Under the pieces are notes generated by a model. The model had not been told where the DNA came from and ran no database searches. It was given only the letters and a program-made list of their open reading frames with translations. Source: Pseudomonadota bacterium (GTDB lineage: Bacteria; UBA10199; 2-02-FULL-44-16; JBDRGF01). Taken from it: a stretch of DNA of 64,000 bases. The DNA is taken from positions 22,119-86,118 of the forward strand of contig JBDRGF010000141.1 of NCBI GenBank assembly GCA_043818055.1, written 5' to 3'. Both the position numbers and the translations under genes were made by a program. Positions within the stretch are counted from its first letter, which is position 1. Every line of letters begins with the position of its first letter. Positions 26,446-51,933 of this stretch are shown piece by piece.

Positions 26446-26570
26446 AGGGGGTATCCATAGGTCAGGTGATGGTATTAGTCAAATTTTAGATGGCGAAGTG
26501 GACTATTTTTGAAATATTGCTTTATAATTGCGTTATGATAAGGAAACAGGTCGAAGCTAAAGGTAAATGC

Positions 26571-28082: not shown

Positions 28083-28095
28083 TTTTTCTCCTGAA

Positions 28096-28533: not shown

Positions 28534-28547
28534 TTATACAGATTTAC

Positions 28548-29036
28548 TCAGGGATGTCTAATAATTTGGTTGAAATGGATGTGATGAAAAGCGTTTTGAA
28601 AGAGGGTAAGAATATTCTTTCTCACTGCAGTTATGGTTGATGGATGGTGATCGTAGATGTTTGGCAATAGAGGCCAAAAACCTTTTTTTTCTTCGAGCTC
28701 CAGCGGTCCGGCTTCATCAATTAAAAATATCCGGGGAGAGCCGAAATCGATTTTTTTGATTTTATCGAAGATCTTAAAGTCAAACCAGTAATCCCGCCAT
28801 TTTGTTGAGCCATGGAAATGTGTGTTGCGAGTTAACGTCGATTTGAGGATGATTTGTGAATCTTTGATGATGTGGATATCATGCCCACATTTTACTCCCT
28901 CTTCCAATACAGGTGGAGAAATCCAGCCTGCCATTTGAATCCCCTTTTGAGTACAGTCTTTAAATTGTTTAAAGAGAAGAGTGCTCTTTCCTGAATTCAC
29001 ATCACCTGTGATGATGTAGTGGCCGCGTTCAAACAA
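28548..29036 (-). CDS. Small P-loop NTPase (THEP1/DUF2478-like)
   Basis: IITGDVNSGKSTLL Walker A and FLIDEAGPLEL Walker B, comparable to the IDEIG.MEL of THEP1-type NTPases. Confidence 0.55.
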   Translation of the reverse strand: MFERGHYIITGDVNSGKSTLLFKQFKDCTQKGIQMAGWISPPVLEEGVKCGHDIHIIKDSQIILKSTLTRNTHFHGSTKWRDYWFDFKIFDKIKKIDFGSPRIFLIDEAGPLELEEKKGFWPLLPNIYDHHPSTITAVRKNILTLFQNAFHHIHFNQIIRHP

Positions 29037-29752: not shown

Positions 29753-30845
29753 AGACGGAGCTAAAGCTAAGGACGCACTGGTTGTGTCCGAAAAAAATCC
29801 AGACGGAGCCCAAAATCGGACTTGTTGAGTCCGATTTTCGGACACATTTGAATATGTCAGATCTTGTAACATAGTGATTTTTCTAGGTTCCTGTTTTGGC
29901 ATCATTTTTGCTTATGTGATCTGTCATGGCCTACCTTGCTAGACAGGATATCATATTTAACGGCGCCACATTTCATATCACCTGGCAATGCCACAACTTC
30001 GACTTCTTTTTGGAAAGCGATGAAGCAAAAAAGGTCTATTACAATTTGCTGCTAAAATATAAGAAGAAATATGGGGTTACTATCTACTCATACTGCTTAA
30101 TGTCCAACCATCCCCATCTCACGGGATTTACTAAGACTGTTGATGGCCTCTCTGCCTTTATGAGAACTGTCAATTCGATGTTTTCCAGATGGTATAACAG
30201 GACAAATGGAAGAAGGGGGCAGGTTATCATGGATAGGTTTAAATCACCCGTAATTCAAACCGATGAGGTTTTACTCTGCGTTATGACATATGGAGATTTA
30301 AATCCCGTAAGGGCAAATATGGTAACAGACCCGAAGGATCACAAATGGAGTTCATATTGTTATTATGCCTATGGGGAGGCCGATCCTCTCATAACGCCGG
30401 CGCAATCGTATCTCAACCTTGGAAAAAACGATCATGAACGGCGGGAGGAATACAGGAGAATGGTCAGGACAGTAATCGTGGAGGATGGAAAAAATTGGAG
30501 GCGAAAATATTCGAATACATATTGTATAGGAAATCCAGATTGGGTGAAAGCCAGATTCGACAAGCTCAATGATATCAAACGTGCAAAGAGAGATGCATAT
30601 TCGAAGAGGCAGAGGGAATATCTCAATTCTATGTTTATTCCGTAACAAGCCAATAGTACGTACTTGGGAGAAGGCACATCTTAATGTTGAGGTCTATCTG
30701 TTCTCAGTAAAAAGTAAGTGATAATCAAAGAAGCAGTATCAATCGATTTCCAAACTCGTTATATAAGCTAAGAAAAAATCTCTAAAACAAAAAATCGAAC
30801 GTTTTTTATTCCAGATGCATCGTTTAAGTTGTTTTAGCTCCGTCT
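29753..30845 (+). mobile_element. IS200/IS605-like (RayT-type) Y1 transposase unit bounded by 13-bp inverted repeats
   Basis: AGACGGAGCTAAA (29753-29765) versus TTTAGCTCCGTCT (30833-30845). An extra CAGACGGAGC lies at 29799. Nested hairpins GTGTCCGAAAA/TTTTCGGACAC (29784/29835) and AAATCGGACT-TGTTG-AGTCCGATTT (29813-29837). Confidence 0.6.
29926..30645 (+). CDS. REP-associated tyrosine transposase-like protein (Y1 HUH, COG1943 type)
   Basis: FHITWQCHNFDFFL, the YCLMSNHPHL HUH motif, and YGDLNPVRANMV...HKWSSY carrying the catalytic Tyr helix region. Confidence 0.8.
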   Translation: MAYLARQDIIFNGATFHITWQCHNFDFFLESDEAKKVYYNLLLKYKKKYGVTIYSYCLMSNHPHLTGFTKTVDGLSAFMRTVNSMFSRWYNRTNGRRGQVIMDRFKSPVIQTDEVLLCVMTYGDLNPVRANMVTDPKDHKWSSYCYYAYGEADPLITPAQSYLNLGKNDHERREEYRRMVRTVIVEDGKNWRRKYSNTYCIGNPDWVKARFDKLNDIKRAKRDAYSKRQREYLNSMFIP

Positions 30846-30884: not shown

Positions 30885-32063
30885 CTATAATTTTAAATCT
30901 TTTTTTATTCGATCAGCCGCCTTTTGAATCTCAGCCATTGTCGGGACCAAGGCAAAACGCACGAAATTTTTGCCCGGATTAAGTCCGTCAGTCGTTGGAT
31001 TTGATATCCATTCCCCGGGGGTGACGACTATGCCCAAATTTAAAAGCTTTTCGGCGAGTTCAACGCCCGTCATTCCCTTTGGTGCTTTCTGCCACAAGTA
31101 GAAGGTTGCCTCCGTCTGGATTTCGGGGAGGCCGGCATTTTTAAGGGCATTTAGCATTATATTTCTTTTTTCTTTGTAACTCTTGCGCATATTTTCGGCG
31201 TGGATTTCATTATTTAGAGAGAGAGTGGCGACATCCTGAATGAAGAGAGGGGTGCCAGAGTCGATGTTGGTCTTCACCTTTCTGAATCCGCTTATGATTT
31301 TCTTATCTCCGGCGACAAATCCGACCCTGTAACCTGTCATATTGTTTCGTTTGGAGAGCGAGTAAAATGTGATAACTCCCTCTTTTTTGATCTGAAGCTG
31401 ACTTAGCGGTTTTTCATCAAAATAGATGTCAATGTAACAACCTTCATCTGCTGCAATTATGATGTTATATTTTTCAGCCCAATCGCATAGCTTTTTCAAC
31501 CATTCTCTTGTCGCCATCTTTCCCGTTGGAGAGTTTGGATAGTTTGTCCAGATTATCTTCGCGCGATTTGCGATCTCATTTGGAATGCTCTCAAAGTCGA
31601 TCAAATAATTATTTTCCTCGAGAAGAGGGACGAAATAAGGTTCTCCACCGGCAAATCGTGTTCCAGTCGAGTAGGGCGGATATCCCGGAGTAGGGCATAT
31701 GACGATATCGCCCGGATTTATAAATCCCAGCGGAAAATTGAAGACCGCCTCTTTCGCGCCTATCGTCGAACTTATTTCAGTCTCAGGATTGAGATCAACT
31801 CCGAAGTTATTATTCAAGTAAGCGCTAGCAGCCCTTCGAAACTCAATGTCGCCGATATAACTTGGATATCCATGAGTGCTTCTCTTCCTTGCAAATTCGC
31901 TTAAGCTATCGATGACAAAATCAGGAGTCGGACTCTTGGGATCACCGACTCCAAAATCAATCACCTCAACACCCTTTTTTTTGAGTTCGGCAACCTTTTT
32001 ATCCACCTCTGCAAATGGGTAAGCTGAAGTTTTTTGAATCCTATCTGAATATATTATCTCCAT
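30885..32063 (-). CDS. dapL: Class I/II aminotransferase, LL-diaminopimelate aminotransferase type
   Basis: SAYPFAEVDKKVAELKKKGVEVIDFGVGDPKSPTP N-terminus and a YSLSKR PLP-lysine motif. Last gene of the lysC-asd-dapF-lysA operon. Confidence 0.7.
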   Translation of the reverse strand: MEIIYSDRIQKTSAYPFAEVDKKVAELKKKGVEVIDFGVGDPKSPTPDFVIDSLSEFARKRSTHGYPSYIGDIEFRRAASAYLNNNFGVDLNPETEISSTIGAKEAVFNFPLGFINPGDIVICPTPGYPPYSTGTRFAGGEPYFVPLLEENNYLIDFESIPNEIANRAKIIWTNYPNSPTGKMATREWLKKLCDWAEKYNIIIAADEGCYIDIYFDEKPLSQLQIKKEGVITFYSLSKRNNMTGYRVGFVAGDKKIISGFRKVKTNIDSGTPLFIQDVATLSLNNEIHAENMRKSYKEKRNIMLNALKNAGLPEIQTEATFYLWQKAPKGMTGVELAEKLLNLGIVVTPGEWISNPTTDGLNPGKNFVRFALVPTMAEIQKAADRIKKDLKL

Positions 32064-32104
32064 AACATATGCTCCTTAACTTACGCACTCAAGCTCCTAA
32101 GCTC

Positions 32105-33325
32105 CTATACCACAAACCCCAAATTGTTTATCATCTCATCGAATGTCATTCTTCTTTTTATCTGTTTAATACTATCGCCATCCACCATTACTTCACACGC
32201 ATACGGCCTTAAGTTGTAAAGTGAACTCATGGAGTTTGTATATGCCCCGCTGGTGAGAATCGCGAGCAGATCACCCTCTCTTGGTATTGATATCTCAATA
32301 TCCTTTCCCAGCACATCACATGATTCGCAGATGTTGCCGACTATATCGGCTCTTATCTTTTTTTCATCGGGATTTGAGAGATTGATGATGTGATGGTAGG
32401 CGTCGTAAAATGCTGGCCTTATGAGGTGATTGAAGCCGGAATTGACGCCAATAAATGTTTTCGCACCGCTTTTTTTGACGTTAGTTACTTTTACAATGAG
32501 AGCGGTCGATTCAGCCACCAAAAATTTTCCCGGCTCAAATCTTATTTCGATCTCCTTACCATTGAGTTTTGAAAATTCTTCTATGGTACCCTTTATCGAT
32601 TCGTAAAAATCGCTGAGGTTGATAGGGGGGTTATCCGGATGATACCTCACGCCGAACCCTCCACCGAAGTCTAGAAAATCTAAGTTAGAAAATGCCTTTG
32701 CCACGGCTGCTATAATTTTTACAGCTTCGGAAAATGTCTTTGTATTGTAAAAGCCTGATCCGATGTGGCAATGGATTCCCAATACTGTGAGATTGTGTCT
32801 CTTCACCAAGTCCTTTGCATCATCAAAATTCATTCGGTCTATTCCGAATTTTGATTCATCTCCAGCGGTGATGACACCTTTGTTCTCGCCATCTCCAACT
32901 CCCGGATTGATCCGTAGCGAGATGTTAGATCCGCCAAATCGTTCTCCAAATCTTTTTAGTTCCGAGATTGAGCCGATATTGAGTAAAACTCCCTCCTTGT
33001 GAGCGAATTCCATCTCTTCGTCGCTTGAGTTGTTTCCTGTGAAAATGATTTCCGAGCTTGTAAAACCCACCATCTTTGCCATCTCAATCTCCCAAGGGGA
33101 GACGGCATCGATGCCATCCACACCAGCATTCTTCAATGTTTTAACGATAGCAGGGGTGTAGTTAGCCTTGATAGCGTAGAATATTTTGGTTTTCTGCCAC
33201 TTGAAGGCATCTTTAAAAATTTTAACACGGTGGAACAGACTATTTTTGTCTGTTACCAAAACCGGAGTTGAGAATTTGTCGGCAATATTCTTTGCTGTTG
33301 CAAGTGATGGTGTATAGATCTTCAT
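32105..33325 (-). CDS. lysA: Diaminopimelate decarboxylase
   Basis: YAIKAN PLP-Lys motif, HCHIGSG, GGGFG and EPGKFLVAES. 406 aa. Confidence 0.9.
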   Translation of the reverse strand: MKIYTPSLATAKNIADKFSTPVLVTDKNSLFHRVKIFKDAFKWQKTKIFYAIKANYTPAIVKTLKNAGVDGIDAVSPWEIEMAKMVGFTSSEIIFTGNNSSDEEMEFAHKEGVLLNIGSISELKRFGERFGGSNISLRINPGVGDGENKGVITAGDESKFGIDRMNFDDAKDLVKRHNLTVLGIHCHIGSGFYNTKTFSEAVKIIAAVAKAFSNLDFLDFGGGFGVRYHPDNPPINLSDFYESIKGTIEEFSKLNGKEIEIRFEPGKFLVAESTALIVKVTNVKKSGAKTFIGVNSGFNHLIRPAFYDAYHHIINLSNPDEKKIRADIVGNICESCDVLGKDIEISIPREGDLLAILTSGAYTNSMSSLYNLRPYACEVMVDGDSIKQIKRRMTFDEMINNLGFVV

Positions 33326-34149
33326 TATTTTGTCTCGATGCTTTTTAAATCAAGCTTTCCTGAAAATAGGTATTTTGCAGGGCCTGTCATATAAAAATCG
33401 CTATCAGTCCAGTTGAAGATGAGTCTTCCGCCTAAAAGATCGACTTTGACATCATTAAAACGGTTATTATTGGTAAACCGGTAAACCGCGGCTGCGGCCG
33501 CAGCTCCTGTTCCGCACGCCAGCGTTTCACCTGAACCCCTTTCCCAAACCCTCATCCTGATTTCTCCTGCAGCAACCTCTTCATAGAATTCGACATTAGT
33601 CCTCTCTGGAAAGAGCTTTAGATTATTTTCGATCGGCTCTCCATATTTTCGAACGTTAAAATTCTTGATGTCGAGTATTTTGATTACCGCGTGGGGATTG
33701 CCGACGTTGACTCTGTGAAAGGTAAACGATTGTCCGTTCGATTCAATATTTTCATTTGTGGAATTGATTTGAGGTGGGCTGAACAGCTTTGCTCTGATGT
33801 CATCTCCTAAAATTTCCCCAGTGACGATGCCCGCATTTGTTTCGACTGAGATCTTATTTTTTTTCGGATCCAGGGTATTCAACAGTCGCATGACAGATCT
33901 TACACCATTTCCGCAAATTTCCGCCTCGCTGCCATCCATGTTGAATATTCTCATTCTCGCATCAGCCTTTTTGCTTGGAAGAACGAGAATCACACCATCG
34001 CCGCCGATTCCAAATCTCCTGTCTGATATTACGCTGACTTTGGAGATGATCTCAGCCTCTGGCAGCTTTGTCTTTAAGCCTTCAAAATAGACATAGTCAT
34101 TTCCGATGCCTGTCAGTTTGTGAAACTCAATATTCATGTTCATCTTCAT
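33325..34149 (-). CDS. dapF: Diaminopimelate epimerase
   Basis: FHKLTGIGNDYV and the two catalytic Cys contexts MRIFNMDGSEAEICGNG and GETLACGTG. 1-nt overlap with the lysA start (TAATG). Confidence 0.9.
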   Translation of the reverse strand: MKMNMNIEFHKLTGIGNDYVYFEGLKTKLPEAEIISKVSVISDRRFGIGGDGVILVLPSKKADARMRIFNMDGSEAEICGNGVRSVMRLLNTLDPKKNKISVETNAGIVTGEILGDDIRAKLFSPPQINSTNENIESNGQSFTFHRVNVGNPHAVIKILDIKNFNVRKYGEPIENNLKLFPERTNVEFYEEVAAGEIRMRVWERGSGETLACGTGAAAAAAVYRFTNNNRFNDVKVDLLGGRLIFNWTDSDFYMTGPAKYLFSGKLDLKSIETK

Positions 34150-35144
34150 TCCTCCCCCAGAACATATTTTAAAATCTGTACTGCGTTTAGTGCCGAGCCT
34201 TTTAGGATCTGATCTCCCGATATGAAAAAATCGATTCCGAATTTTCCGAATATCAGACTTTGCCTGATCCTTCCAACCTCGACATTGAATTTCTCGCTCG
34301 ATGTTAGGGGCATAGGGTATTTGTCATTATGTGGTTCGTCAATCAGATCGACGCCGACTGCTTTGCTCAAAATGCTTCTGGTCCTGTCGGTATCGATCTC
34401 TTTTTCCGTCTCTATCGTTATGCTCTCAGAGTGCGATCTCAAAACAGGAACTCTGACGCATGTGCAGCTTATTCCCATAGAGTCGTCGTCAAATATCTTC
34501 CTCAGTTCCCATACCACTTTCATCTCCTCCTTCGTGTATCCGTTTTCCTGTAGAACATCTATTCTCGGGATCAGGTTGAAGGGAAGGGGATGAGAGAAGA
34601 TTTCATTTGTCGGTTTTTTGTTCTGAAGATAATCCGTCGTGCCATTTATCAGCTCTGTCATTGCAGTTGTGCCTGCGCCTGAGCTCGCCTGATATGTCGA
34701 GATGATGATCTTTTTTAATTTAAACACCTGATGAAGTGGCCAGAGGACGACGGAGGCAATGGCTGTTGTGCAGTTTGGATTGGCAATGAGCTTAGCTCCG
34801 ATCGCTCTGGAAGCGTTGATCTCAGATATGATAAGGGGGACATCTTTGTCATATCTAAATGCTGATGAACAATCGATGACCCTGCAACCTGCTGTGATTG
34901 CATGTGGCAGATATCTCTTCGATCTATCTGCCCCAGCTGCAAAAAATGCCCAAGTGCATCCATCGAAGCTCTTCTCATCGACGGCTTCGACCTCTTTAGC
35001 GCCATATGGCGTTTCGATTTTTTTTCCAGCTGATCTTGGTGATGCAAGAAGTCTTAACTCGCTGAATTGAACGTCGAGCTCTTTCAGGCAGTTGATGATA
35101 TCGAGGCCGACCGCCCCGGTTGCTCCAAGGATTGCAAGTTTCAT
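34146..35144 (-). CDS. asd: Aspartate-semialdehyde dehydrogenase
   Basis: MKLAILGATGAVG, the NPNCTT active-site Cys, and STYQASSGAG. 4-nt overlap with the dapF start. Confidence 0.92.
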   Translation of the reverse strand: MKLAILGATGAVGLDIINCLKELDVQFSELRLLASPRSAGKKIETPYGAKEVEAVDEKSFDGCTWAFFAAGADRSKRYLPHAITAGCRVIDCSSAFRYDKDVPLIISEINASRAIGAKLIANPNCTTAIASVVLWPLHQVFKLKKIIISTYQASSGAGTTAMTELINGTTDYLQNKKPTNEIFSHPLPFNLIPRIDVLQENGYTKEEMKVVWELRKIFDDDSMGISCTCVRVPVLRSHSESITIETEKEIDTDRTRSILSKAVGVDLIDEPHNDKYPMPLTSSEKFNVEVGRIRQSLIFGKFGIDFFISGDQILKGSALNAVQILKYVLGEE

Positions 35145-36520
35145 TATTTTTCACTTCCTTTAATGATTAATTTATCGTGCAACATTCTTAATGCATCCAA
35201 TGCCTGATGATTGTCAATCATCACGGTAATGTTGTTGGCGGAGGCCCCCATGCTTAAAGTGTAAGATGTGATTTTCTCCTGATGCAAGGTATCAAAAATC
35301 TCCGAAATTAGTTTGTTATCTCTGGCAACTTTCGTTCCAATGACACTGAGCTTGGCTATCTTTTCAAAGACCTCAACCCTTGCGACTTTGGAGAGGGCTT
35401 CATAGAGCCTCTTTGAATAGTCCTGGCTTCTGATCGAAAATGTGAACGACGTTTCGGATGTCGCGCAGACATCGCACGGTACCTGTTGATCGGAGAGCAC
35501 CTCTCCGACCTTTGCGATAAAACCTACACCGCCCAAAATTGCCGGATTTTCAAGGTTGATAAGCGTATTGTTGAGATTGATCACAACCCCTTTGATCCCC
35601 TCGCTCTTCTCGGCAGAGATCACGGTTCCCTTAAATTCTGGATTGAAGGTGTTGAGAACGTGAACCGGTATGTTTTTTCTGATGGCCGCGATAATCGATT
35701 TTGGATGAACTACCTTCGCCCCTCCGAATGCCATCTCGGATGCGACGTGTATGTCTAGCGTTGGCCATGAGAATGCCTTGTCGACAATTCTTGGATCGGC
35801 TGACATGATGCCATCCGCATCGGTCCATATATCTATAGCGTTTGCATCGAGGCTCAAAGCGGTGATGGCAGCCGTGTAATCGCTCCCGCCGATGCCTAGC
35901 AGTGTGACATCTCCGTGAGTATCCTTTCCGATGAATCCGGTTATCACAGGCGTTATATTCTTCGCGAGAAGGGGTTTGATCGTGTTCCTGAAAGCTATCC
36001 TTGTGGCTGCAAAGTTAACATTTGCTTCGAGGTATTGACTGTCGGTTCGTACGAGCTTTTTAGCGCTGATTCGTTTGCAGGGGATGTGAATCTCTTCGAG
36101 GGCGTAGCACATAAGAAAGCTAGATAGCCTCTCGCCGTACGAGAGAATCAATGCGTATGTCTTATCTGATACATCCCCGACAAGGCTTGTTCCATGGAGA
36201 ATTGCTCTCAGCTTTTCAAATCTCGGGTTGAAATCCTCTCGCCAGAGCTCTCTAGCGCGCATTGGGACGAGCTCATCGACTATCTTTTTGTACTTCTCTT
36301 CTATCTCATTTAGCTTCGCGCTGACAAGCCTCGGCTTTTGATTTTTGGCGAACTCCACTATCTCTATCAGCTGTCGTGTTACACCCCCGACAGCTGATAC
36401 GACTACAACGATCTGATGCTCATCCAGCCCATTTCTGACGATCCCAGCACACCTTTTTATACACTGGGCAGACCCCATTGATGTGCCGCCGAATTTTATA
36501 GTCCTTTTGAGTGTGGTCAT
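35144..36520 (-). CDS. lysC: Aspartate kinase
   Basis: IKFGGTSMG and VVVVSAVGGVT, with C-terminal ACT repeats. ATG 36520 has SD AAGGAAATAAGG. 1-nt overlap with the asd start. Confidence 0.9.
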   Translation of the reverse strand: MTTLKRTIKFGGTSMGSAQCIKRCAGIVRNGLDEHQIVVVVSAVGGVTRQLIEIVEFAKNQKPRLVSAKLNEIEEKYKKIVDELVPMRARELWREDFNPRFEKLRAILHGTSLVGDVSDKTYALILSYGERLSSFLMCYALEEIHIPCKRISAKKLVRTDSQYLEANVNFAATRIAFRNTIKPLLAKNITPVITGFIGKDTHGDVTLLGIGGSDYTAAITALSLDANAIDIWTDADGIMSADPRIVDKAFSWPTLDIHVASEMAFGGAKVVHPKSIIAAIRKNIPVHVLNTFNPEFKGTVISAEKSEGIKGVVINLNNTLINLENPAILGGVGFIAKVGEVLSDQQVPCDVCATSETSFTFSIRSQDYSKRLYEALSKVARVEVFEKIAKLSVIGTKVARDNKLISEIFDTLHQEKITSYTLSMGASANNITVMIDNHQALDALRMLHDKLIIKGSEK

Positions 36521-36733
36521 CCTTATTTCCTTAATTTTAGATAAAAAACAGTTTGTGCAATTACAGGTTAAATGAATATTAGTCAATTGTTTTTTAATTT
36601 GGATGAAATGAGAGAATAGTTTTAACGTTAGATGTAACTATATGAAAATAAAAGGCTTGTTACTCTGTAATCTTAAAAGAATGCGTTTTTCTGAAATCAA
36701 AATATCAATCTGAAATTCTTATTTAGAAAAAAG

Positions 36734-37138: not shown

Positions 37139-37164
37139 AGTATAGAACAACTACGAGGTGATAT

Positions 37165-39423
37165 ATGACTTTCAAAGCTCCAAGTTTACTACCTGTGTCA
37201 ATGAGTTCAAGAACTATGGATCTATTCCATCCAAAAGCCATCTCTTATCCCAGGGGTGAAATGACAACAGAAGACACGTGTGTGTATTCTAACAGTTACA
37301 ATGCTGCGAGTGCGCCTGAATCGATAAGATCAGGTCAGCCTTCGATCTTTCAAAAAGGCGTGTTAACAATATCTGAGTACTTAGAAAATAAACATGTAAC
37401 AAATATAGCAAAGCTTGTAGGACTTACGATTTTCTACCATCTTCTTTCCGAAACCAGTTTGGGAAATCTAGACGCATTTGGATTGAGCACAGCTGTACTC
37501 ATGGGAACATCGCGAAGAAAAAAAACTAAAATACAAAGAATCTGTGAAGAGGTGCGACATGCATATGCCGAAGGTGATTTTGATAGATTTCACACTCTAC
37601 TTTTCGAGAACTATAGAGAAGATTTCAATTTTGTGGAAGGGCTGAGTCTTTGTGATTTAGAACCTAGAGTAGGTCTTGATTCACTGGAGGAGATTAATCG
37701 AGGAAGGTTAGTTGGGAGTAGAGATCGCACAGGTGAGTTTGGATTTGTCCTGGGAATCAATGAAGAAATTAAGCAACATTACAATTCCACAAGTTATATT
37801 TATGCAGCTTTATTAAGTGAGAGGCTCTCAGCTCATGCCGCTCTCTTTATAACACTGCTCTCTCTAAAGCTCGGCGATTTTGTCTTGATTTCTTTGGCGC
37901 TCAACCAGCCTCGGCTCTATGAGCTTGAGCCAAGGATTCTGGATAGACTCGCTTTCATGTTTCCAGACAATTCATATAGATCAAAATTTTTCAGGAAGTT
38001 GAACAATATCACAGGTTACATATTTTGTCTTGAAGATGATGAGTATCGCGATGGGGATGGTGAATGTTTTTTTACAGATACGATTAGCGCGCAGCTTTCA
38101 CGGGCATGGATACAATCGAAGGGAATAGATTCTACAAGGGTAACGTGTTTAACTAAAAGTGGCGCTGAGATTTTGCTCTCAGAATTTGCAGGATTCTATG
38201 ACGCTGTGATTGCGATAGCACATCAGGGGGTACGTCACGCTGGAATGTTAGCTTACGCTGGCGTGCCGATATTTCCGATCAGAATCCATCACCATAATAA
38301 TGAGGGCTTTTTTAAATCGCTATCAGGAAGCTCTCTGCAAGAACTTTACGGCAAAAAAATTCTTATTGTTGAGGATGATATTGTTAGTGGAAATTCACTG
38401 CAACTTCTCGCCGATCACTTTGGCCTCGATTTTATTTCACAGGCGGATCTGTTGCTGACAAATTCTATGCTATACAGTCGCATGGCGCCTCAAATTCTCA
38501 ACTTTAGAGGGATGATCTTTTTGCAGCAAGTTCTGCAATTTTGGGATACAAGATCCTATATAGAAATGTTCCGCAAATTTGCCCTACGCCAGAAGGCATA
38601 TCTTCAAGTTGCTGAAGAAGGAGGTAGTCTATCTCAAAGGCAATCAGCAGTAGAGGAACGGGTTAAAAAAATGCTGGATGACAAGGGCAACCAGAGGATG
38701 GTGAGTTGGTCGAGAAGAAGGAGTATGAAACGAGCCCTTTATCACAATATCTTTCAAATTTTGCGTCAGCCCTTGGAGTATGGATATGCTTGTGACAATG
38801 CTCATGATGCTTTTGATATTTTGGAAAGACACATTAACGAAATTGAGGAACTTTTGAATGATCACACTCAGAAAACCATGATTGAACTTCGAAACAAGAT
38901 CGATGAAGTTGTAAAAATGATGACATCTGATGTGGAACATGAACTCACAAAGTTGATTCCAAAAGACATCGATGAAAGTGCCAGAGATCTGCAAGCAAAG
39001 ATGGCTGCCATAATGGGTCGGCTTAAGGCATTCCAGGCATTGCCTGAAATTGGCAGTTATGTGAGCGAATTTCGGCTTAACATGTTTCGAAGTCTGATCC
39101 GATATCGACTGGAAAAAATTATGGAGCTTCAGCTAGACAGAAATCACGTTTTAAAAGCAGTCAGTGCGACAATGGGCTATATATCAGGAATTTTTGATTA
39201 TCTTGAGACGAGATATGATAATATCACAACCCCATTTATGGATTTTTCCAGGGCTGAGGCGATACGATCGCTCAACTACTTCATGGACGAGGTTATTGAA
39301 ATGGCACCCTTGCTATTGACTCGAGAGTTGGCATCGTCCCTCTTCAGCGAGAAGACAGAGGACTACTACAAACGCTATTTTGTGGGGGGGGTGACGGTAT
39401 CGCTCTATGCACGCACAGCATAG
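37165..39423 (+). CDS. Large orphan protein with a central type-I phosphoribosyltransferase module and helical extensions
   Basis: SD GAGGTGA. PRT core FYDAVIAIAHQGVRHAGMLAYAGVPIFPIRI ... GKKILIVEDDIVSGNSLQLL (nt ~38185-38460). No other motif recognised in the ~340 aa N-terminal and ~300 aa C-terminal parts. Confidence 0.7.
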   Translation: MTFKAPSLLPVSMSSRTMDLFHPKAISYPRGEMTTEDTCVYSNSYNAASAPESIRSGQPSIFQKGVLTISEYLENKHVTNIAKLVGLTIFYHLLSETSLGNLDAFGLSTAVLMGTSRRKKTKIQRICEEVRHAYAEGDFDRFHTLLFENYREDFNFVEGLSLCDLEPRVGLDSLEEINRGRLVGSRDRTGEFGFVLGINEEIKQHYNSTSYIYAALLSERLSAHAALFITLLSLKLGDFVLISLALNQPRLYELEPRILDRLAFMFPDNSYRSKFFRKLNNITGYIFCLEDDEYRDGDGECFFTDTISAQLSRAWIQSKGIDSTRVTCLTKSGAEILLSEFAGFYDAVIAIAHQGVRHAGMLAYAGVPIFPIRIHHHNNEGFFKSLSGSSLQELYGKKILIVEDDIVSGNSLQLLADHFGLDFISQADLLLTNSMLYSRMAPQILNFRGMIFLQQVLQFWDTRSYIEMFRKFALRQKAYLQVAEEGGSLSQRQSAVEERVKKMLDDKGNQRMVSWSRRRSMKRALYHNIFQILRQPLEYGYACDNAHDAFDILERHINEIEELLNDHTQKTMIELRNKIDEVVKMMTSDVEHELTKLIPKDIDESARDLQAKMAAIMGRLKAFQALPEIGSYVSEFRLNMFRSLIRYRLEKIMELQLDRNHVLKAVSATMGYISGIFDYLETRYDNITTPFMDFSRAEAIRSLNYFMDEVIEMAPLLLTRELASSLFSEKTEDYYKRYFVGGVTVSLYARTA
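39384..39391 (+). repeat. G8 homopolymer at the junction of the two PRT-module ORFs
   Basis: tgtGGGGGGGGtgac read directly. The frame of the downstream ORF is already open from 39300. Confidence 0.9.
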
Positions 39424-39449
39424 TAGATACGCTCAACCTTGCAAAGCAT

Positions 39450-39863
39450 GTGATCGATCATGGTGATTTTGATATGGTGCTCGTCATCGGCCCTGAGGGT
39501 GGAAAATATGCAGCACCATTTGAAATGCTCAGATTGCCTGTGACTCAGATTCACATCGACGATTTTGACAAGGGACGTCCTTACAAGGTCATCGGAAACT
39601 TAGAGGAACTGCGCGGAAGACGGATTTTGCTTTTGGAGGATGATGTTCATAGCGGTTCAACATTGAATCGTACCTTAAGCCTCGTTCTTCCATTTGAACC
39701 AGAAGCACTTGATCTATTTCTTGGCAATCCTATCCATTACCAAAACTTGGAAAATGTTCCAAAGGTCATACGTAATATATATACTAATCTGTCCTACCCG
39801 AAGTCATCTGAAGAGGAACACGCAATCTATGAATGGTTTTTGAAACTCGCTGGTGCTGTATAA
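39450..39863 (+). CDS. Second phosphoribosyltransferase module (stand-alone from GTG 39450, or 3' part of a frameshifted fusion)
   Basis: FDMVLVIGPEGGKYAAPFEMLRLPVTQIHI ... GRRILLLEDDVHSGSTLNRTL. There is no ATG/GTG/TTG in frame between 39300 and 39450. Confidence 0.6.
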   Translation: MIDHGDFDMVLVIGPEGGKYAAPFEMLRLPVTQIHIDDFDKGRPYKVIGNLEELRGRRILLLEDDVHSGSTLNRTLSLVLPFEPEALDLFLGNPIHYQNLENVPKVIRNIYTNLSYPKSSEEEHAIYEWFLKLAGAV

Positions 39864-39902: not shown

Positions 39903-41063
39903 TCAAATCACCCGTGTTTTAATCACGCCTTCAATAGCTTCGATCCTGGAGATGGTTGAATCGTCGATCGGACCATCAATATCTATTATGTTATACGCTG
40001 TCTCGCTTTTGCTCTTATTGAGCATCTCCTGAATGTTGAGTTTACTAGCTGCGAGCACTGCTGTGAATTGTCCCACCATGTTTGGGACATTTTTGTTGAT
40101 GATAGTGAGTCTCGTATCAGTTTGTCTTCCGAGTTGGCAGTTGGGAAGGTTGACGGAGTTAGATATATTTCCATTTTCAAGAAAGTTGGCTACCTGTGAC
40201 GCTATCATCATCGCGCAGTTTTCTTCAGCTTCGGGTGTAGATGCGCCAAGATGAGGAAAGCATATCGTGTTTTTAGCTGAGATAAAATCGGCACTCGCAA
40301 AGTCTGTCACATATGTGCTGATATGGTCAGCTTCAAGTGCCTTTAATAGGGCTTTCTCATCGACTACACCCCCTCTTGAAAGGTTGATAAGGCGCGCGCC
40401 CTTTTTCATCATGGAGATTCTATTCTCATTCATAAACCCCTTTGTTTTTTCTGTCTCAGGGATATGAAGTGTGATGTAGTCTGAGGTCTTGATCAACTCG
40501 TCTAATGACGCGGCCTTTTTTACCTCGCGCGAGAGATTCCATGCCGAATCGACTGAAATGAATGGATCGAAACCGGATACATCCATGCCCAGGGATGTGG
40601 CGCTGTTTGAGACCATCACGCCGATCTGTCCCAGACCGATGACTCCCAATTTTTTTCCGAGAATTTCCGGACCTGTAAATGTGCTCTTATTCTTTTCGAT
40701 ATTTTTCGATATATCTGTAGCGTTCTTAAGTCCACCGACAAAATTGATTCCCTCGATCACCCTTCTTGAGGAGAGGAGGAGGGCGAGAATTGTGAGTTCC
40801 TTCACTGCGTTTGCATTGGCGCCCGGGGTGTTAAGGACGACGATACCTTTTTCAGTGCATTTTTCGATAGGAATGTTGTTCACTCCCGCACCCGCTCTGC
40901 CAACAACTTTAAGCGACGCAGGCAATTCCATCTCATGCATTTTGAAGCTTCTTAAAAGGATTGCATCGGGTGACGTTTCATCATCGGATATGTTATATAG
41001 CTTGGAAGAAAAGGTCTTTAAACCCTCTGACGATATTTTGTTGAGAATTTTAATCTTGTGCAT
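39903..41063 (-). CDS. serA: D-3-phosphoglycerate dehydrogenase
   Basis: GVIGLGQIGVMV NAD-binding motif, RLINLSRGGVVDE and FPHLGAST, plus a C-terminal ACT-like domain. ATG 41063 has SD AAAGGAAAA. Confidence 0.9.
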   Translation of the reverse strand: MHKIKILNKISSEGLKTFSSKLYNISDDETSPDAILLRSFKMHEMELPASLKVVGRAGAGVNNIPIEKCTEKGIVVLNTPGANANAVKELTILALLLSSRRVIEGINFVGGLKNATDISKNIEKNKSTFTGPEILGKKLGVIGLGQIGVMVSNSATSLGMDVSGFDPFISVDSAWNLSREVKKAASLDELIKTSDYITLHIPETEKTKGFMNENRISMMKKGARLINLSRGGVVDEKALLKALEADHISTYVTDFASADFISAKNTICFPHLGASTPEAEENCAMMIASQVANFLENGNISNSVNLPNCQLGRQTDTRLTIINKNVPNMVGQFTAVLAASKLNIQEMLNKSKSETAYNIIDIDGPIDDSTISRIEAIEGVIKTRVI

Positions 41064-41076
41064 CGTTTTTTCCTTT

Positions 41077-41904
41077 CTATTGTTCAAACCACTCGGCTGG
41101 GTCGAGTCTATAGAACTCTTTTAGCTCTTCGTAAAGTTTTGGATGTATCTTTTTCATCAGTATAGCCTTCTCAAAAAATGTCTCAGTCGCTACTGCGAAG
41201 AATTCTGCAGGATTGGTGGCACCGTAAAAATCCATGATATCTTTTTCATGGTGCATCATAGCGGAGCGAAGGTGTTGGTATTCTTCAGTTAGCACATGTG
41301 CCCACATAGCGTAGCTTGAACGTTTTTCTAGTAGCGGTGCTCCATTAGCCTGGCCGCTCTCCTGATCTAGTTGGTGCGCGAATTCGTGGAGGACGACGTT
41401 GTGTCCCCCTTTGAAATCCATAGTGCACTGTTTGACATGATCCCAAGCGAGCACTACCGTTCCACGATCCCACGATTCTCCCAAACGGGCGCTCGGCTCT
41501 GTTATGTATGTGATGCCGATCTGAACCCTTTGCTCAGCGACGTAAGCGCTTGGATAGACGAGTATCGAAGAGAGAAGAGGGAAGTAGGTGATCTTATCTC
41601 TGTTCAAAAGGAGTATGCAGGCTTGTGCTGCGATTGTGACCTTTATTTCATCGGTGATCTTGAGTCCACCGCATCCTTCAAAGTACTTTTCTGCGAGGAA
41701 TACCTGCATATGTCTATGGAGTTGCTTTTTTAGGTCGTCAGGCAAAAATTTATAGAGTGCGACATTTCGCTCTATGATCTCAACCCAATCGTGTGACAGT
41801 TCCTTTTGCAACAAAATCTTTCGCCTGTGATTTCTCCACTCGAGTTTGATTATCCAGAGCAGGAAAAACAGAATCCATATTGATATGAAAAGAAATATTC
41901 CCAT
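41077..41904 (-). CDS. MtfA-like zinc metallopeptidase (M90) with N-terminal TM helix
   Basis: HEFAHQLD zinc motif with the typical downstream NPAEFFAVATETFFE. Confidence 0.8.
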   Translation of the reverse strand: MGIFLFISIWILFFLLWIIKLEWRNHRRKILLQKELSHDWVEIIERNVALYKFLPDDLKKQLHRHMQVFLAEKYFEGCGGLKITDEIKVTIAAQACILLLNRDKITYFPLLSSILVYPSAYVAEQRVQIGITYITEPSARLGESWDRGTVVLAWDHVKQCTMDFKGGHNVVLHEFAHQLDQESGQANGAPLLEKRSSYAMWAHVLTEEYQHLRSAMMHHEKDIMDFYGATNPAEFFAVATETFFEKAILMKKIHPKLYEELKEFYRLDPAEWFEQ

Positions 41905-44736: not shown

Positions 44737-46566
44737 CTATTCCGGATTTGCAAAGGCGCGATCCCATTCATCATCATTAGGTATATTACTGAAAACTGTT
44801 TCGAAACTGTTAAAGGTGTGCATCCATTCATCTTTTATCCAGGTAAGTTTTTCAAACGTGTTTCTCCGTCTTGCCTTTGAGGGTATTCTTCTAATTAGCA
44901 TAGATAGATCTGCTGACAATATTTCTCTTTCATCATAGGAAAATATAAGATTTTTGATTGTTCTAAAAACAATAGACGCATAAGATGCCCGATTATCTCT
45001 AATTGAAGAGATGAGAGTGGCTCTCATTAAATATAATGAAGATTTTAACATCTCTTCCAAAGTCTCTATTATAATGAATGTGTTGATTTTAGGGAAGATT
45101 TTATTGTTATCATTATTCAAAGGCTTCTTACGAGCCAGGTGAGCTCTTAAAGTCAGATCTATAAAGGTGGATAAAAGTTCTAGCTGTGCAATTAGTGAAT
45201 TGCCATCATCTCCGTTTAATTGTTTTAAAATTACTGATTCAATATCAGACTCAACATCTGATAGCTCATTAAGAAAATTATACATATGAGTCTTATAATC
45301 AAGAATTGCCACATACATCAGATGGAGTTGAAAAGTTGAATCCAACAAGATATTTCTTTTGTCCTTAGGCATATTGTTATAGATGTTATAAAGTTGTTTG
45401 ATAAATTTGCTTACATTATCTAAGTCATTTCTTTGATAAGCAAGGTAAGCTCTCAACGTCGGCAGCATAATCCTCTCAAAAGAAGAAATGCTATTGGATT
45501 CTTTTGGTTTTTTATTTTTTGTTTTTTTTGATCTGCTTTTTGGTGATTCTTTCGATCTGATGAATAGAATGGCTTCATTGATAAACGGTATAGCCAATGG
45601 GCTGAGCAATCCTCCATAGAATATCATTTCTGGAAAATTTAATAAGTCCTCTGTTGTTGTGGGGGAACCTCTTTTTAAAATTTGCGTAACCTTTAAAGCA
45701 GAGAACTGTTGAACAGAAAAAATATTTTCCATTGACCGATCAAATGTCTGGGTGGCTTTTGGATGCATCGATGGCCGTTCCATTTCATTAAGGTTAAGTA
45801 AAGCTTCATTGCACAAATTCTGGATAAGAGTGTGATCTGCAAAATTCAAAGCTTCAAAATTAATGTTTTCGAGAAGACTTTTGCATAAGATTGCCAGAAG
45901 TCCTATAGCTTCTATAGAGTGGGTATTTCTATGAGAGAGCTGCTGAAAGAGGATAGTTGTATATCCTAAACAATCCTGTAACTCCTGGTCTGTAAGAGAT
46001 GGTAATTGTAATCGGGGAATAAATATTTCTTCTAAGATATATAAGTTCAATCTATCACTTCTTTCTCTTGGATTTTTGTCGTAAATATTTGCAACCTCTT
46101 TAACTACTTTCTCCGTTGAGAAATCTCCAAGTTTAGATACATAATTAAGTGCGAGTCTTGCAGTCTCAAACTCTTCTGCGGCGAGTAATAGATCAAAGAG
46201 TTCACGGGTAGGTGTTTGTCTATACACTCTTCTATCCATTTCTCTATTAGGATTCAGCTTAGTAGTATAAAGCTTTTCAAGCGCTTCAATAAATTGATCT
46301 GACAATGGAGTTGTGGAAACAGGGGGTTTTAAAAATCTACTATCACGATAAGGAGCTCTGGCATTCTGCAACAGAAGTGGGGTGTATCTAAGTATGGCGG
46401 CGGATGCTGCTACCTGTAAATCATTTGATGGGGGCTGCGGTTTAAGAGTTGGTGAGGGTATGTTGGGGTCGGTATTTTGTCCTGGTAAAATTAATTCGTG
46501 TTTTTGTAAAGTAGCAAGTAGTTGGTTGGAAGCCTTTATATAATTGTTCTGAATAGTTTTTGACAT
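44737..46566 (-). CDS. Orphan 609-aa predicted all-helical protein with Pro-rich N-terminus
   Basis: Long uninterrupted ORF, 3 nt downstream of the 637-aa ORF. Internal basic patch SKESPKSRSKKTKNKKPKESN. No motif, signal peptide or TM recognised. Confidence 0.6.
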   Translation of the reverse strand: MSKTIQNNYIKASNQLLATLQKHELILPGQNTDPNIPSPTLKPQPPSNDLQVAASAAILRYTPLLLQNARAPYRDSRFLKPPVSTTPLSDQFIEALEKLYTTKLNPNREMDRRVYRQTPTRELFDLLLAAEEFETARLALNYVSKLGDFSTEKVVKEVANIYDKNPRERSDRLNLYILEEIFIPRLQLPSLTDQELQDCLGYTTILFQQLSHRNTHSIEAIGLLAILCKSLLENINFEALNFADHTLIQNLCNEALLNLNEMERPSMHPKATQTFDRSMENIFSVQQFSALKVTQILKRGSPTTTEDLLNFPEMIFYGGLLSPLAIPFINEAILFIRSKESPKSRSKKTKNKKPKESNSISSFERIMLPTLRAYLAYQRNDLDNVSKFIKQLYNIYNNMPKDKRNILLDSTFQLHLMYVAILDYKTHMYNFLNELSDVESDIESVILKQLNGDDGNSLIAQLELLSTFIDLTLRAHLARKKPLNNDNNKIFPKINTFIIIETLEEMLKSSLYLMRATLISSIRDNRASYASIVFRTIKNLIFSYDEREILSADLSMLIRRIPSKARRRNTFEKLTWIKDEWMHTFNSFETVFSNIPNDDEWDRAFANPE

Positions 46567-46569
46567 GGA

Positions 46570-48471
46570 TTATTTCCCCGGTGCTGTTGTTGGAATGGGT
46601 TGATGTTTTTGTAAATTCTCCCAAACTATTTGCATCTGTTTATGAATTGTTTCTAAGTCATGTTTGATGGTTGAAAGTGCATGCTGAAAAGTGTCAGGTC
46701 TTTTCCCGCGATCATTTCTTTGTATGGGCGGAGTACTGGTCAGCGCTGTGTTAGTATTATCCCGATCTATTACTTCAGGGAGGATCTGTTCGGAGGGCGG
46801 GGGATTAAGCATGATCTCTTCCAGAATCGTCTGGCTTTGTGTTGATAATTCCAATTCTTCAAGCAAAGCCATTCTATAATCCTGTTCAGGAAATGCTGAT
46901 GATGAGGAAAGAAAGATTCTTAGGTTGTGAGTTATGAATCTAAGTGATTCGAAGATGGTGCCAAAAAGCATTGTAAATTGAAAAGGGAAACCGACAGGGT
47001 TTTTTGCCGACCTCTTCTGCTCATCAAGCAAAGGAACGATTGAGAGGGACTTTATTCCTTCAGCAAATGAAATTATAGCGTGCGCCATAAGCAGGATGTC
47101 TTGCGTAAAACTCTTTTTATCAGCAGTGAAGGATGCAAGACAGTTTGCTACAAAGCTTAAGGAAATCAGAAGGTTCAAAGGGTTGTCTTTGTCAATTGAA
47201 TGTTGTAGCTGTTCGTAATAATTATCAGGAAAATCAATTGATAAAGAATAGCGAGCCGCTTCTGATAGCAGATAACCTAAAAGCAGAAGATCATTTGTTT
47301 TAATCGATGCATTCTTTATGGACAAAATTGAGCTAAGGGTTGAATTCAATTCTTTCAAGAAAGGTTCAAGAGTTTTGAGTTTATGTTCATCAGGCTCTAA
47401 TCTGTTGATCTCTTCCTGACTCCTCTTGAGTTTATGGAAATATAAGAGTGCGCGTGTCAAAAAGAAAAGAAATTTTCCTGTTTCTGAGATGTTTTGTGTC
47501 AATTTATCAAGTGCTTTGATGTAGAAATTGACCATTGTAAAAAAAGCTGAATTGTTGTGCCAATTGACAAATGATTTTTTTGAAAGCTCAAAAATACGGG
47601 TGATTATTTTTTCCGCGTCGTTATCTTCAAGCATACAGATCTGATCGAGAGTGATCTTAGCTGATTCGTGGAATAATCTTTCAAATTTTTTCGTTTGATT
47701 TAGAAAATTCTCATTTGGTTCTTTTTCCTTAGTTTTCAGGGATCTTGCGATTTCATTTGTATTATTCAAGATTTGTGAAAGAAAACCAAGATATCCTGCC
47801 TCTGAGAGATGTTGTTGCTCAAGGGCGCCAGGTCCATCGAAAAATCTTTCTGAGTGATAGTGTTCGCGAACTGCATCATGTTGTTTTAATAGAATTTTCA
47901 GACGCATTTTTGGGCTTTGAGGGTAGATCGATGAAATTCCCTGATTAAACCAATCAAGCGCCTGAATGCGCAATCGAGTAAATGAGTCCGGTTCAAAACT
48001 TTCGAGTACAGCTTGCGCAATATTCCAGTTGCTTACCTGTGCAGCTCTTCCGAAATCTTTTTTTAATGCTTCTAATTGCTCTGGTTCGGATAATATTATA
48101 TATGAAGATGTTATTTCCCTTTGCATAAACCTTCCGAGGGCACTGTCAACATGTGAACAGAGAGCCATCATGAACAACTCCCTATCCCTCCCGGCCATAA
48201 ATGCTTCTTGTATTGGTTGAACATAGGAATTTGGGATTAAGGATGGTGGATCGTTTTCTCTCCTCGATACTATTGTATCATCAGGTGTGAAATGACTTAG
48301 CAGAGGATGTTTTAGCGTTGGTTCGTTTGTTGCCAATATAGTTTCCGGATGGGATTGAACAAATTGCGATGGGGGTGCCAGCTTGGGTTCCTGAGTTATT
48401 GTCTGTTGAGCATTGGGAGTAGGTGGAATTCCAATAGCAGTTGTTATTATGGGACTCTTTGGTCCTGTCAT
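46570..48471 (-). CDS. Orphan ~633-aa predicted all-helical protein with Pro-rich N- and C-termini
   Basis: ATG 48471 is preceded by GGGGGAAACC. ATG 48483 is an alternative. No recognisable motif. Confidence 0.6.
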   Translation of the reverse strand: MTGPKSPIITTAIGIPPTPNAQQTITQEPKLAPPSQFVQSHPETILATNEPTLKHPLLSHFTPDDTIVSRRENDPPSLIPNSYVQPIQEAFMAGRDRELFMMALCSHVDSALGRFMQREITSSYIILSEPEQLEALKKDFGRAAQVSNWNIAQAVLESFEPDSFTRLRIQALDWFNQGISSIYPQSPKMRLKILLKQHDAVREHYHSERFFDGPGALEQQHLSEAGYLGFLSQILNNTNEIARSLKTKEKEPNENFLNQTKKFERLFHESAKITLDQICMLEDNDAEKIITRIFELSKKSFVNWHNNSAFFTMVNFYIKALDKLTQNISETGKFLFFLTRALLYFHKLKRSQEEINRLEPDEHKLKTLEPFLKELNSTLSSILSIKNASIKTNDLLLLGYLLSEAARYSLSIDFPDNYYEQLQHSIDKDNPLNLLISLSFVANCLASFTADKKSFTQDILLMAHAIISFAEGIKSLSIVPLLDEQKRSAKNPVGFPFQFTMLFGTIFESLRFITHNLRIFLSSSSAFPEQDYRMALLEELELSTQSQTILEEIMLNPPPSEQILPEVIDRDNTNTALTSTPPIQRNDRGKRPDTFQHALSTIKHDLETIHKQMQIVWENLQKHQPIPTTAPGK

Positions 48472-48700
48472 GGTTTCCCCCATTTTGAGAACTTAATTTG
48501 AAAAACGAATCAATTGAAAAATGAGAATGGCTCAGATTTATCCAATAAGCGATTTAAACTATATTTCTTATATTGAGATATTTTGCAAGAAGAAAAGTTT
48601 TTATCATGACTTTACATTTATGTTTTTTTTGTGCATATATCTGTTATCAAATTTTGGCGAATTCGTTGTAATACCATTCCCAAATAGTTTTTCTGATAAT

Positions 48701-48754
48701 TAACAATAACAATAACAATAACCAATTAACAATAACCAATTAACAATAACCAAT
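48701..48754 (+). repeat. Tandem repeat (TAACAA)x2 + (TAACAATAACCAAT)x3 in the 5' UTR of the 481-aa gene
   Basis: Perfect 14-mers at 48713, 48727 and 48741. The repeat ends 14 nt before ATG 48769 (SD GGGGGA at 48759-48764). Confidence 0.9.
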
Positions 48755-48768
48755 TAATAGGGGGATCT

Positions 48769-51916: not shown

Positions 51917-51933
51917 AAGTTACTCCGTAGTAA

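Follow-up and report, generated by a model that had tools for sequence, protein, structure and literature searches.

Positions 37165-39863 of a 64-kb stretch of DNA (referred to as the window; GC content 43%, all coordinates are positions of the window) were initially annotated as an orphan tandem locus of two genes, ORF1 and ORF2 (open reading frames 1 and 2), each encoding a phosphoribosyltransferase (PRT) module. We found that this region is very probably one gene, whose product carries two PRT domains in a single chain, a central PRT-A and a C-terminal PRT-B, connected by a helical linker (Table 1). In the window the gene is divided into the two listed ORFs by a change of reading frame at a run of eight G residues (G8). 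The encoded protein is a member of the type-I PRT superfamily. Taken as a whole, the explanation that we consider best, and rather probable, comprises a frameshift-split single gene, a rare family of double-PRT proteins and the mechanism proposed below for the two domains.

The signals and motifs noted for the two ORFs in the initial annotation were confirmed. ORF1 is preceded by the Shine-Dalgarno (SD)-like sequence GAGGTGA and contains FYDAVIAIAHQG... and a loop for the binding of phosphoribosyl pyrophosphate (PRPP), GKKILIVEDDIVSGNSL (38350-38400). ORF2 contains FDMVLVIGPEGG... and the PRPP loop GRRILLLEDDVHSGSTL (39615-39665), and its PRT module is indeed paralogous to that of ORF1 (29% identity over 106 amino acids, E = 6e-9). 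The source gene caller also listed the two products separately (P0001 for ORF1, 720 amino acids; P0022 for ORF2) and placed the start of ORF1 at Met33 instead. Since, in addition, the first 116 residues are predicted to be disordered, the true start of ORF1 is uncertain. No SD-like sequence was seen ahead of the GTG start codon of ORF2, and no ATG, GTG or TTG is present upstream of it in its open frame; this start is probably an artefact of the frameshift. Taken singly, the two ORFs scored 21.8 and 22.4 bits against the Pfam family PF00156, slightly under the gathering cut-off of 26.3 bits, and comparison with NCBIfam and PADLOC gave nothing useful for either of them. The joined protein of 899 amino acids reached 40.8 bits, distributed over two stretches.

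The frame of ORF2 is open from about position 39300, approximately 50 codons upstream of the GTG, and overlaps the end of ORF1, both frames being open together only between about 39300 and 39423. The position of the frame change within this overlap was narrowed down with the two closest two-domain homologues, P0002 (749 amino acids, 30% identical to the window protein) and P0003 (540 amino acids, 36% identical), each of which is one polypeptide with both PRT modules. In an alignment of the window protein with P0002, P0003 and the closest subfamily (A1), these two proteins follow the frame of ORF1 as far as EKTEDYYKRY, ...LFSEKTEDYYKRYFVG, and the frame of ORF2 starting with SIVDTLNLAKHVI, ...SIVDTLNLAKHVIDHGDFDMVLVIGPEGG, including 10 residues upstream of the GTG. 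For P0003, the homology in ORF1 ends with ...EKTEDYYKRYFVG and then carries on in the other frame. The homology changes frame between about 39384 and 39410, and G8 is the sole homopolymer there. Insertion of one G into G8 creates a single ORF of 899 codons with one terminal stop codon; P0002 and P0003 match its product both before and after the junction. Both domains are located in one chain in 12 of the 16 family sequences, counting the joined protein of the window. AlphaFold modelling of the joined protein placed the initial helix of PRT-B at residues 753-766 (local confidence score, pLDDT, of about 90), where it straddles the start of ORF2 at residue 763. The notion of a tandem locus of two genes was given up in view of the frames joining at G8 and the complete homologues being one polypeptide; as a candidate in its own right, the two-gene architecture is regarded as refuted. 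A conserved pairing of the two modules in relatives does exist as a domain fusion, but not as a pair of genes.

The assignment of the protein to the PRTs was substantiated at the level of both sequence and fold. The PRPP motif, consisting of a hydrophobic strand, two acidic residues and [ST]-G-x-[ST], is present in PRT-A as ILIVEDDIVSGNS and in PRT-B as ILLLEDDVHSGST. A family profile of PRT-B matched Hpt of Escherichia coli (1g9s) with an E value of 6.6e-9, the alignment comprising the flexible loop with its Arg as well as the PRPP loop and the NVP strand that follows it. The corresponding profile of PRT-A matched best to GpT-2 of Sulfolobus (4z1o, E = 9.3e-8), followed by 5vog and 1vdm. With Foldseek, the models of the window protein and of P0003 matched many solved PRTs with a probability of 1.0 and a target-normalised template modelling (TM) score of up to 0.59.

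The regions flanking the PRT core of ORF1, which had been described as helical, are helices in the AlphaFold model. The N-terminal one is lineage-variable, has no Pfam or PDB match and can be aligned in the closest subfamily only, and there weakly (P0002, P0004, P0011). In the linker, residues 460-560 are conserved in the subfamily (A1), with pLDDT values of 85-91 at 470-560 and below 55 at 585-692. The spacing between the PRT-A loop and the GPEG motif is 219-255 amino acids in the 11 other two-domain members vs. 375 in the window protein, from which we deduce a lineage-specific insertion of about 125 amino acids in the latter. No match to the helical parts was found among the top fold hits in PDB or BFVD. 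A tandem duplication of a unit composed of helical arm and PRT was also considered and rejected for lack of evidence, the N-terminal arm and the linker having no BLASTP similarity to one another. The model of P0003 has a pLDDT of 86.2 and a predicted TM score (pTM) of 0.82, and is confident enough overall for domains and linker to be regarded as one defined body. The model of the window's joined protein is weaker (pLDDT 65.8, pTM 0.45), with the disordered N-terminus and a poorly defined inserted linker segment.

The term orphan does not hold for this protein. Relatives were sought by an exhaustive HMMER search of 1.84 billion representative sequences (clusters at 50% identity, E ≤ 1e-3), which returned 16 matches counting the window's own protein, i.e. 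15 other, distant clusters. All members are metagenomic (ENA, JGI, Logan and one contig of an NCBI metagenome-assembled genome), with 1-3 sequences per cluster, and the sole name given to any of them in the sources is an automatic 'hypoxanthine phosphoribosyltransferase'. The proteins have lengths of 433-894 amino acids, and the GC content of their contigs ranges from 32% to 60%. Their common layout is a variable N-terminal region, PRT-A, a helical linker of about 230 amino acids and a C-terminal PRT-B. PF00156 was matched by 14 of the 16 members, and no other Pfam domain was found in any of them. One subfamily is formed by the window protein, P0002-P0005 and P0011; the remaining members share motifs such as EIHAHNRK and IPESDFGG-RTL. 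A word-indexed protein search with ORF1, the 16-sequence alignment and an extended PRT-B returned the window's own products only, this index missing the family, whose relatives came from the exhaustive search alone, and no relatives were found in GTDB species genomes scanned with ORF1, an alignment A2 and a PRT-B alignment A5, the patterns used being generic. The family seems to be absent from, or very rare in, the GTDB species representatives. Likewise, no member was found in viral contigs. A full-text literature search with phrases for tandem or double PRT domains yielded no paper, and a broader one nothing relevant.

The two domains differ in the conservation of their active sites. PRT-B has 18 invariant columns, including GPEG, R64, EDD, G90 and T92, of which the window protein keeps all 18; PRT-A has 4 invariant columns only. 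Loss of PRPP-loop residues in homologues, named in the initial annotation as an argument against its assignment, was observed for part of the PRT-A copies, but PRT-B keeps these residues in 12 of the 12 members that have this domain. The acidic loop of PRT-A reads D-K-D in 7 of 10 members of the larger subfamily and D-D-D or E-N-D in the other three. The residue before [ST]-G is Asp137 in the human enzyme. This Asp directly preceding [ST]G serves as general acid/base and is strictly conserved in HG(X)PRTs, and work on TcHGPRT indicated that any residue able to hydrogen-bond the purine N7 suffices at this position (PMC10357585). In the family described here, nearly all PRT-A copies have Val or Ile at the position, with three exceptions (Met, Lys or Ser); in the PRT-B copies (12 of 12) it is taken by H, C, Q or R. 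As the residues found in PRT-B can form hydrogen bonds, the TcHGPRT precedent makes PRT-B plausibly active and PRT-A probably not. In the profile alignment, the base-binding Lys of Hpt (LLDK) aligns with LYLG of PRT-B and the GYG-x-D hood motif is lacking, which suggests that an acceptor of PRT-B is recognised differently from hypoxanthine or guanine. The alignment with E. coli Hpt stops before FVVGYGIDY; this is a reading based on alignment rather than on a ligand-bound structure.

Based on these patterns, we tentatively propose that the two type-I PRT folds of the protein make up a pseudo-heterodimer within a single chain. PRT-B would be the working site. Its ligand, Mg-PRPP or another 5-phosphoribosyl compound, would be bound by the invariant acidic E-D-D cluster and the [ST]G-x-T phosphate loop together with the GPEG loop and the invariant flexible-loop Arg, and a nitrogen nucleophile would probably receive the phosphoribosyl group, this acceptor not being recognised in the manner of hypoxanthine or guanine. 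PRT-A, with its hydrophobic residue at the Asp position and an acidic pair that is degraded in many members, would be a structural or allosteric partner, taking the place that a second protomer has in ordinary PRT dimers. The gene would function on its own and its product would be cytoplasmic, with a role in the nucleotide or PRPP economy or in its sensing rather than in a multi-gene system.

Several observations weigh against this proposal. The Asp before [ST]G is absent from both domains, and PRT-B lacks the base-binding Lys and the hood, so that it may bind its ligand without catalysis. The linkers of the two subfamilies have no detectable homology (hhalign probability 0.6%). Two members, P0004 and P0011, carry PRT-A only, the next gene beginning too close to leave room for a PRT-B, and the PRT-A loop has degenerated in both (VLENDVKTEVT in P0004, VLTDDVSEGKK in P0011); PRT-B is therefore not indispensable to every relative. 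Finally, the copy in the window is frameshifted and could be non-functional. As a separate observation, P0004 (L059, 1435-2979) begins with MKIKKKNLFVIILLFCLTYHS...; this stretch has the look of a signal peptide or of the leader of a lipoprotein and distinguishes P0004 from the other members.

Nearly as likely as the pseudo-heterodimer mechanism is a ligand-sensing pseudoenzyme, in which PRPP, (p)ppGpp or a purine nucleotide would be the ligand of one or both PRT folds and its binding would be signalled via the helical regions to a partner, in analogy to PurR and PyrR. The missing catalytic Asp in both domains and the missing base-binding hood motifs would agree with this possibility, and the closest matches of PRT-A include 5vog, a small PRT with bound ppGpp; the Pur repressor of Bacillus subtilis and PyrR were matched as well. 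The helical regions, being long and variable, would be suited to contacts between proteins. However, none of the members was found to contain an output domain, whether for the binding of DNA or RNA or of another kind, the contexts examined contained no conserved partner gene, and PRT-B keeps the full set of Mg-PRPP ligands together with the flexible-loop Arg, which is more than binding alone usually needs.

A role as an effector that a host-dependent bacterium secretes in order to deplete or rewire the PRPP or nucleotide pools of its host is quite unlikely, and the evidence bearing on it is circumstantial. The window does contain numerous large ORFs without known family and the gene for a TLC ATP/ADP transporter-like protein, contigs of homologues carry genes for leucine-rich-repeat, Arf-like, KilA-N and eukaryote-type kinase proteins, and both the disorder of the first 116 residues and the differences of the N-terminal region between lineages might be expected for an effector. 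On the other hand, no secretion signal, chaperone gene or secretion-system neighbourhood was identified, and the host contigs, with 32-60% GC, have the look of an ordinary free-living metabolism (gcv, POR, nrdD, hisG). Most improbable is the defence or signalling system of two co-operating genes with PRTase effectors of the retron or Shosta (ShosT) type, on which the initial annotation had speculated and for which one may cite the two ORFs, split also by the source gene caller, and one family member with a marginal ShosT match (E = 1.3e-3, the only one among the 16), because homologues are single polypeptides, ORF2 comes without an SD sequence and without the first helix of its domain, PADLOC gave no match for the window protein, and seven contexts were devoid of reverse transcriptase genes, ShosA-like genes and other recurring neighbours.

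With respect to the cause of the frame break, an old pseudogene is excluded, since the downstream 158 codons are free of stops and all 18 family-invariant positions of PRT-B are intact. The explanation with the best, though somewhat less than even, prospects is a real frameshift. The gene would then either have been inactivated by a very recent mutation or be phase-variable by slipped-strand mispairing and caught in its OFF state, so that only the PRT-A protein of 752 amino acids would be made. Homopolymers of a length like that of G8 are classic slipped-strand sites, and G8 runs are rare in a window of this GC content (2 observed vs. 0.41 expected). Natural relatives having PRT-A only also exist (P0004, 514 amino acids; P0011, 531 amino acids). 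However, the perfect preservation of PRT-B downstream means that any inactivation would be recent, and homologues lack a Gly run at the equivalent position (...RHLKKTDVERN... in P0002 and ...KYLAALTSAEKGD... in P0003), which indicates that the G tract is not a family trait.

Next in likelihood, and still a substantial possibility, is an under-call of the homopolymer, a run of nine G residues having been read as G8 during sequencing or assembly, so that the organism would make the intact 899-amino-acid protein. The break falls exactly in the only homopolymer of the overlap, the out-of-frame tail of ORF1 comprises just 10 codons, and the preserved PRT-B frame with its 158 stop-free codons and 18 invariant residues would be expected in this case. 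Against it stands the second G8 run of the window (27647-27654), which is in frame (AKGGAS) inside the TLC transporter gene; as no other split genes were noticed in the window either, the assembly does not generally miscall G8 runs. A second assembly for comparison, i.e., an independent copy of the locus, was not found by exact-protein look-ups with P0001, P0022 and SerA or by two exact-DNA scans of metagenome contigs with 24-26-mers.

Programmed recoding, either by a -1 ribosomal frameshift on G_GGG_GGG or by transcriptional slippage, would lead to a fixed ratio of the 752- and 899-amino-acid products, but is unlikely. The ORF1 frame reads GTG GGG GGG GTG and fits the pattern X_XXY_YYZ, a -1 slip would give the product supported by homology, and a hairpin is possible a few bases downstream of G8. 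However, this downstream fold is no better than that of shuffled sequences (z = -1.59; 12 of 200 shuffles fold equally well), and the site is conserved in none of the homologues, all of which are plain single ORFs. A far-reaching combination of these possibilities would be a new class of PRTs, pseudo-heterodimeric within a single chain, with one conserved active domain using a non-purine or other new acceptor (or acting as a dedicated PRPP/(p)ppGpp sensor) and a regulatory pseudo-domain, with production of the catalytic C-terminal domain being switched through slippage or changes in length at the coding poly-G tract in an uncultivated, possibly host-dependent bacterium; this seems rather unlikely to us.

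Table 1. Features of the double-PRT gene and of its neighbourhood in the 64-kb window.
Feature	Position	Strand	Remarks
Shine-Dalgarno-like GAGGTGA	37155-37161	+	3 nt before ATG 37165; read from sequence
ORF1	37165-39423	+	752 aa as assembled; last 10 codons (VTVSLYARTA) are an out-of-frame tail
Reconstructed gene	37165-39863	+	899-aa double-PRT protein if the run is G9 or is bypassed by a -1 slip
N-terminal helical region	37465-38160	+	Residues ~101-332; AlphaFold (AF2) helices H103-H326, pLDDT 50-85 from ~120
PRT-A, XGPRT-like/archaeal GpT-like	38161-38541	+	Residues ~333-459; AF2 pLDDT 78-85, beta-alpha-beta topology
PRT-A PRPP loop GKKILIVEDDIVSGNSL	38350-38400	+	Acidic pair ED present; Val at catalytic-Asp position
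Helical linker	38542-39383	+	Residues ~460-740; AF2 helices H462-H738
Window-specific linker insertion, ~125 aa	~38860-39234	+	Coiled-coil-like, low model confidence; unmatched in A1
G8 homopolymer, frameshift point	39384-39391	+	Zero frame G_GGG_GGG, formal -1 slippery heptamer
PRT-B, Hpt-like	39420-39860	+	Residues 753-899 of joined protein; AF2 pLDDT 84-96
ORF2	39450-39863	+	GTG start, 137 aa
PRT-B PRPP loop GRRILLLEDDVHSGSTL	39615-39665	+	His at catalytic-Asp position; H, C, Q or R across family
dapL	30885-32063	-	Name read from translation
lysA	32105-33325	-	Name read from translation
dapF	33325-34149	-	Name read from translation
asd	34146-35144	-	Name read from translation
lysC	35144-36586	-	Pfam support; immediate neighbour
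serA	39903-41087	-	Pfam support; immediate neighbour

The genomic context is that of a stand-alone gene. The seven family contexts (window, L059, L061, L062, L063, L144/L145, L146) share no neighbour, and neither a defence island nor a partner gene was seen in them. The statement of the initial annotation that the locus adjoins no genes of nucleotide metabolism is correct for the immediate neighbours lysC and serA, but not within 10-15 kb. About 8-11 kb upstream (25675-29036), a MazG-type NTP pyrophosphohydrolase (25675-26445, minus strand) and an NTPase (28548-29036, minus strand) are encoded, as is the TLC ATP/ADP transporter-like protein (26490-27878, plus strand), which matches PF03219 with 56 bits in its C-terminal half only and hints at a host-dependent, nucleotide-scavenging lifestyle. 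Further genes of a salvage group are located 10-14 kb downstream (50204-54120) and encode an adenine deaminase (50204-51916, minus strand), a permease of the xanthine/uracil family (52027-53460, minus strand) and a CMP/dCMP-type (TadA-like) deaminase (53578-54120, plus strand). Together, the nearby nucleotide genes are suggestive of a nucleotide-scavenging lifestyle, not of something specific to the double-PRT gene. In other contexts, hisG adjoins the gene for P0017, nrdD/nrdR are located two genes upstream of that for P0019, and miaA/folD adjoin that for P0004, which is too inconsistent to count. Genes of the lysine pathway are present within a few kb of the window gene (30885-36586) and of the gene for P0007 (L061, 198-3842: dapF-dapA-dapB-aminotransferase). 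This proximity is probably a coincidence, since other members have no such genes nearby; the aminotransferases of the window and L061 are only 32% identical.

Other parts of the window contained several further features. Beside the lysine-pathway cluster, a homologue of IS200-like Y1 tyrosine transposases of the REP-associated type is encoded at 29926-30645 (PF01797, 32 bits). A protein with ATPase_2 and DUF234 domains ('archaeal ATPase') is encoded at 13393-14790 in a bacterial-looking context. The gene at 56433-58262 codes for a eukaryote-type Ser/Thr kinase domain (residues 323-585) behind an N-terminal region of 320 amino acids without known family, and a Pkinase gene is also located near the family member on L061. 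ORFs of 609, 637 and 481 amino acids at 44737-50214 and of 445 and 266 amino acids at 54289-56423 have no Pfam family, and the lineage seems to be rich in such proteins. The leucyl-tRNA synthetase (18825-21257) and the DapL-type aminotransferase (30885-32063) are at most 56% and 64% identical, respectively, to any GTDB species genome matched, and their best matches are distributed over many phyla (CPR, DPANN, Thermodesulfobacteriota, Bacillota and others). The host may represent a deep or poorly sampled lineage.

If our interpretation is correct, a spurious two-gene system can be dropped from the list of candidates, and annotators should merge the 137-amino-acid 'PRT' with the 752-amino-acid protein or mark the gene as frameshifted. 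What emerges is a defined family of great rarity (16 clusters out of 1.84 billion representatives), in which two purine-PRT-like folds are fused via a long helical scaffold, an arrangement without a solved or described counterpart. Such proteins would constitute a natural test of how a PRT dimer can become a single, asymmetric chain in which one site is conserved and the other decays, and the family may hide a new PRPP-dependent reaction or a sensor of PRPP or alarmones. No urgent or field-changing result is indicated.

Among known PRTs, PRT-B resembles Hpt most closely. Both have the type-I fold, the hydrophobic strand followed by ED...[ST]G-x-T with identical spacing, an Arg in the flexible loop and the ...NVP... 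strand. However, Hpt is a protein of 180 amino acids, whereas PRT-B is the end domain of a chain of 540-899 amino acids, and in PRT-B the Asp before [ST]G is replaced by H, C, Q or R, the Lys by Gly (LYLG), and the FVVGYG-x-D hood is absent. The best NCBIfam model for the window protein is TIGR01203 (HGPRTase; HGPRT, hypoxanthine-guanine phosphoribosyltransferase), with 23 bits vs. a cut-off of 150 bits, and every family member scores far under the cut-offs. With regard to the invariant Asp, the scores against the curated models (TIGR01203 and those for xanthine PRTs), and the Lys and hood, the family falls outside the 6-oxopurine PRTs (HGPRT/Hpt and XGPRT, the xanthine-guanine enzymes).

The best profile and fold matches of PRT-A are the XGPRT-type enzymes, namely E. 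coli Gpt (1a95/4jit), 4z1o, the protein of Pyrococcus horikoshii (1vdm) and that of Neisseria gonorrhoeae with ppGpp (5vog). Like PRT-A, they have a PRPP loop and an A-[RK]-[GQ]-G-L pyrophosphate loop, and their strands follow each other in the same overall order. PRT-A differs from them by mostly having Val or Ile instead of the catalytic Asp, by a Lys as second acidic residue (L-D-K-D) in 7 of 10 members of the larger subfamily, and by being embedded between two long helical regions.

PRPP synthetase (Prs) is the known case of two PRT-like domains per chain. Like the window protein, it has two type-I PRT-like folds in one polypeptide, and Foldseek aligned both domains in order to several Prs chains. 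However, superposition of the two domains gave root-mean-square deviations of 19-20 Å and TM scores of 0.16-0.32, showing that they are arranged differently, and the linker of the window family has about 230 amino acids or more, whereas the Prs domains pack directly. Matches to ribP_PPkin (TIGR01251) were weak and limited to 4 of the 16 members (best E = 8e-6), which places the family outside Prs. In PurR of B. subtilis and in PyrR, the PRT fold is kept for the binding of PRPP or nucleotides, with catalysis reduced or absent. Both proteins are among the weaker sequence and fold matches, but the family has no identified winged-helix or RNA-binding surface and no link to pur or pyr operons, and contains two PRT folds per chain. 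The defence PRTases (retron-associated and Shosta ShosT) also have a PRT domain in an unusual, non-housekeeping protein, but the window protein has no PADLOC match, partner genes or island-like context. In PDB and BFVD, Foldseek detected no chain matching beyond a single PRT domain in a comparable arrangement. The view that the architecture fits no known PRT enzyme was thus upheld by the low NCBIfam score, by PF00156 as the only Pfam family, by the single-domain matches in PDB and BFVD and by the literature search.

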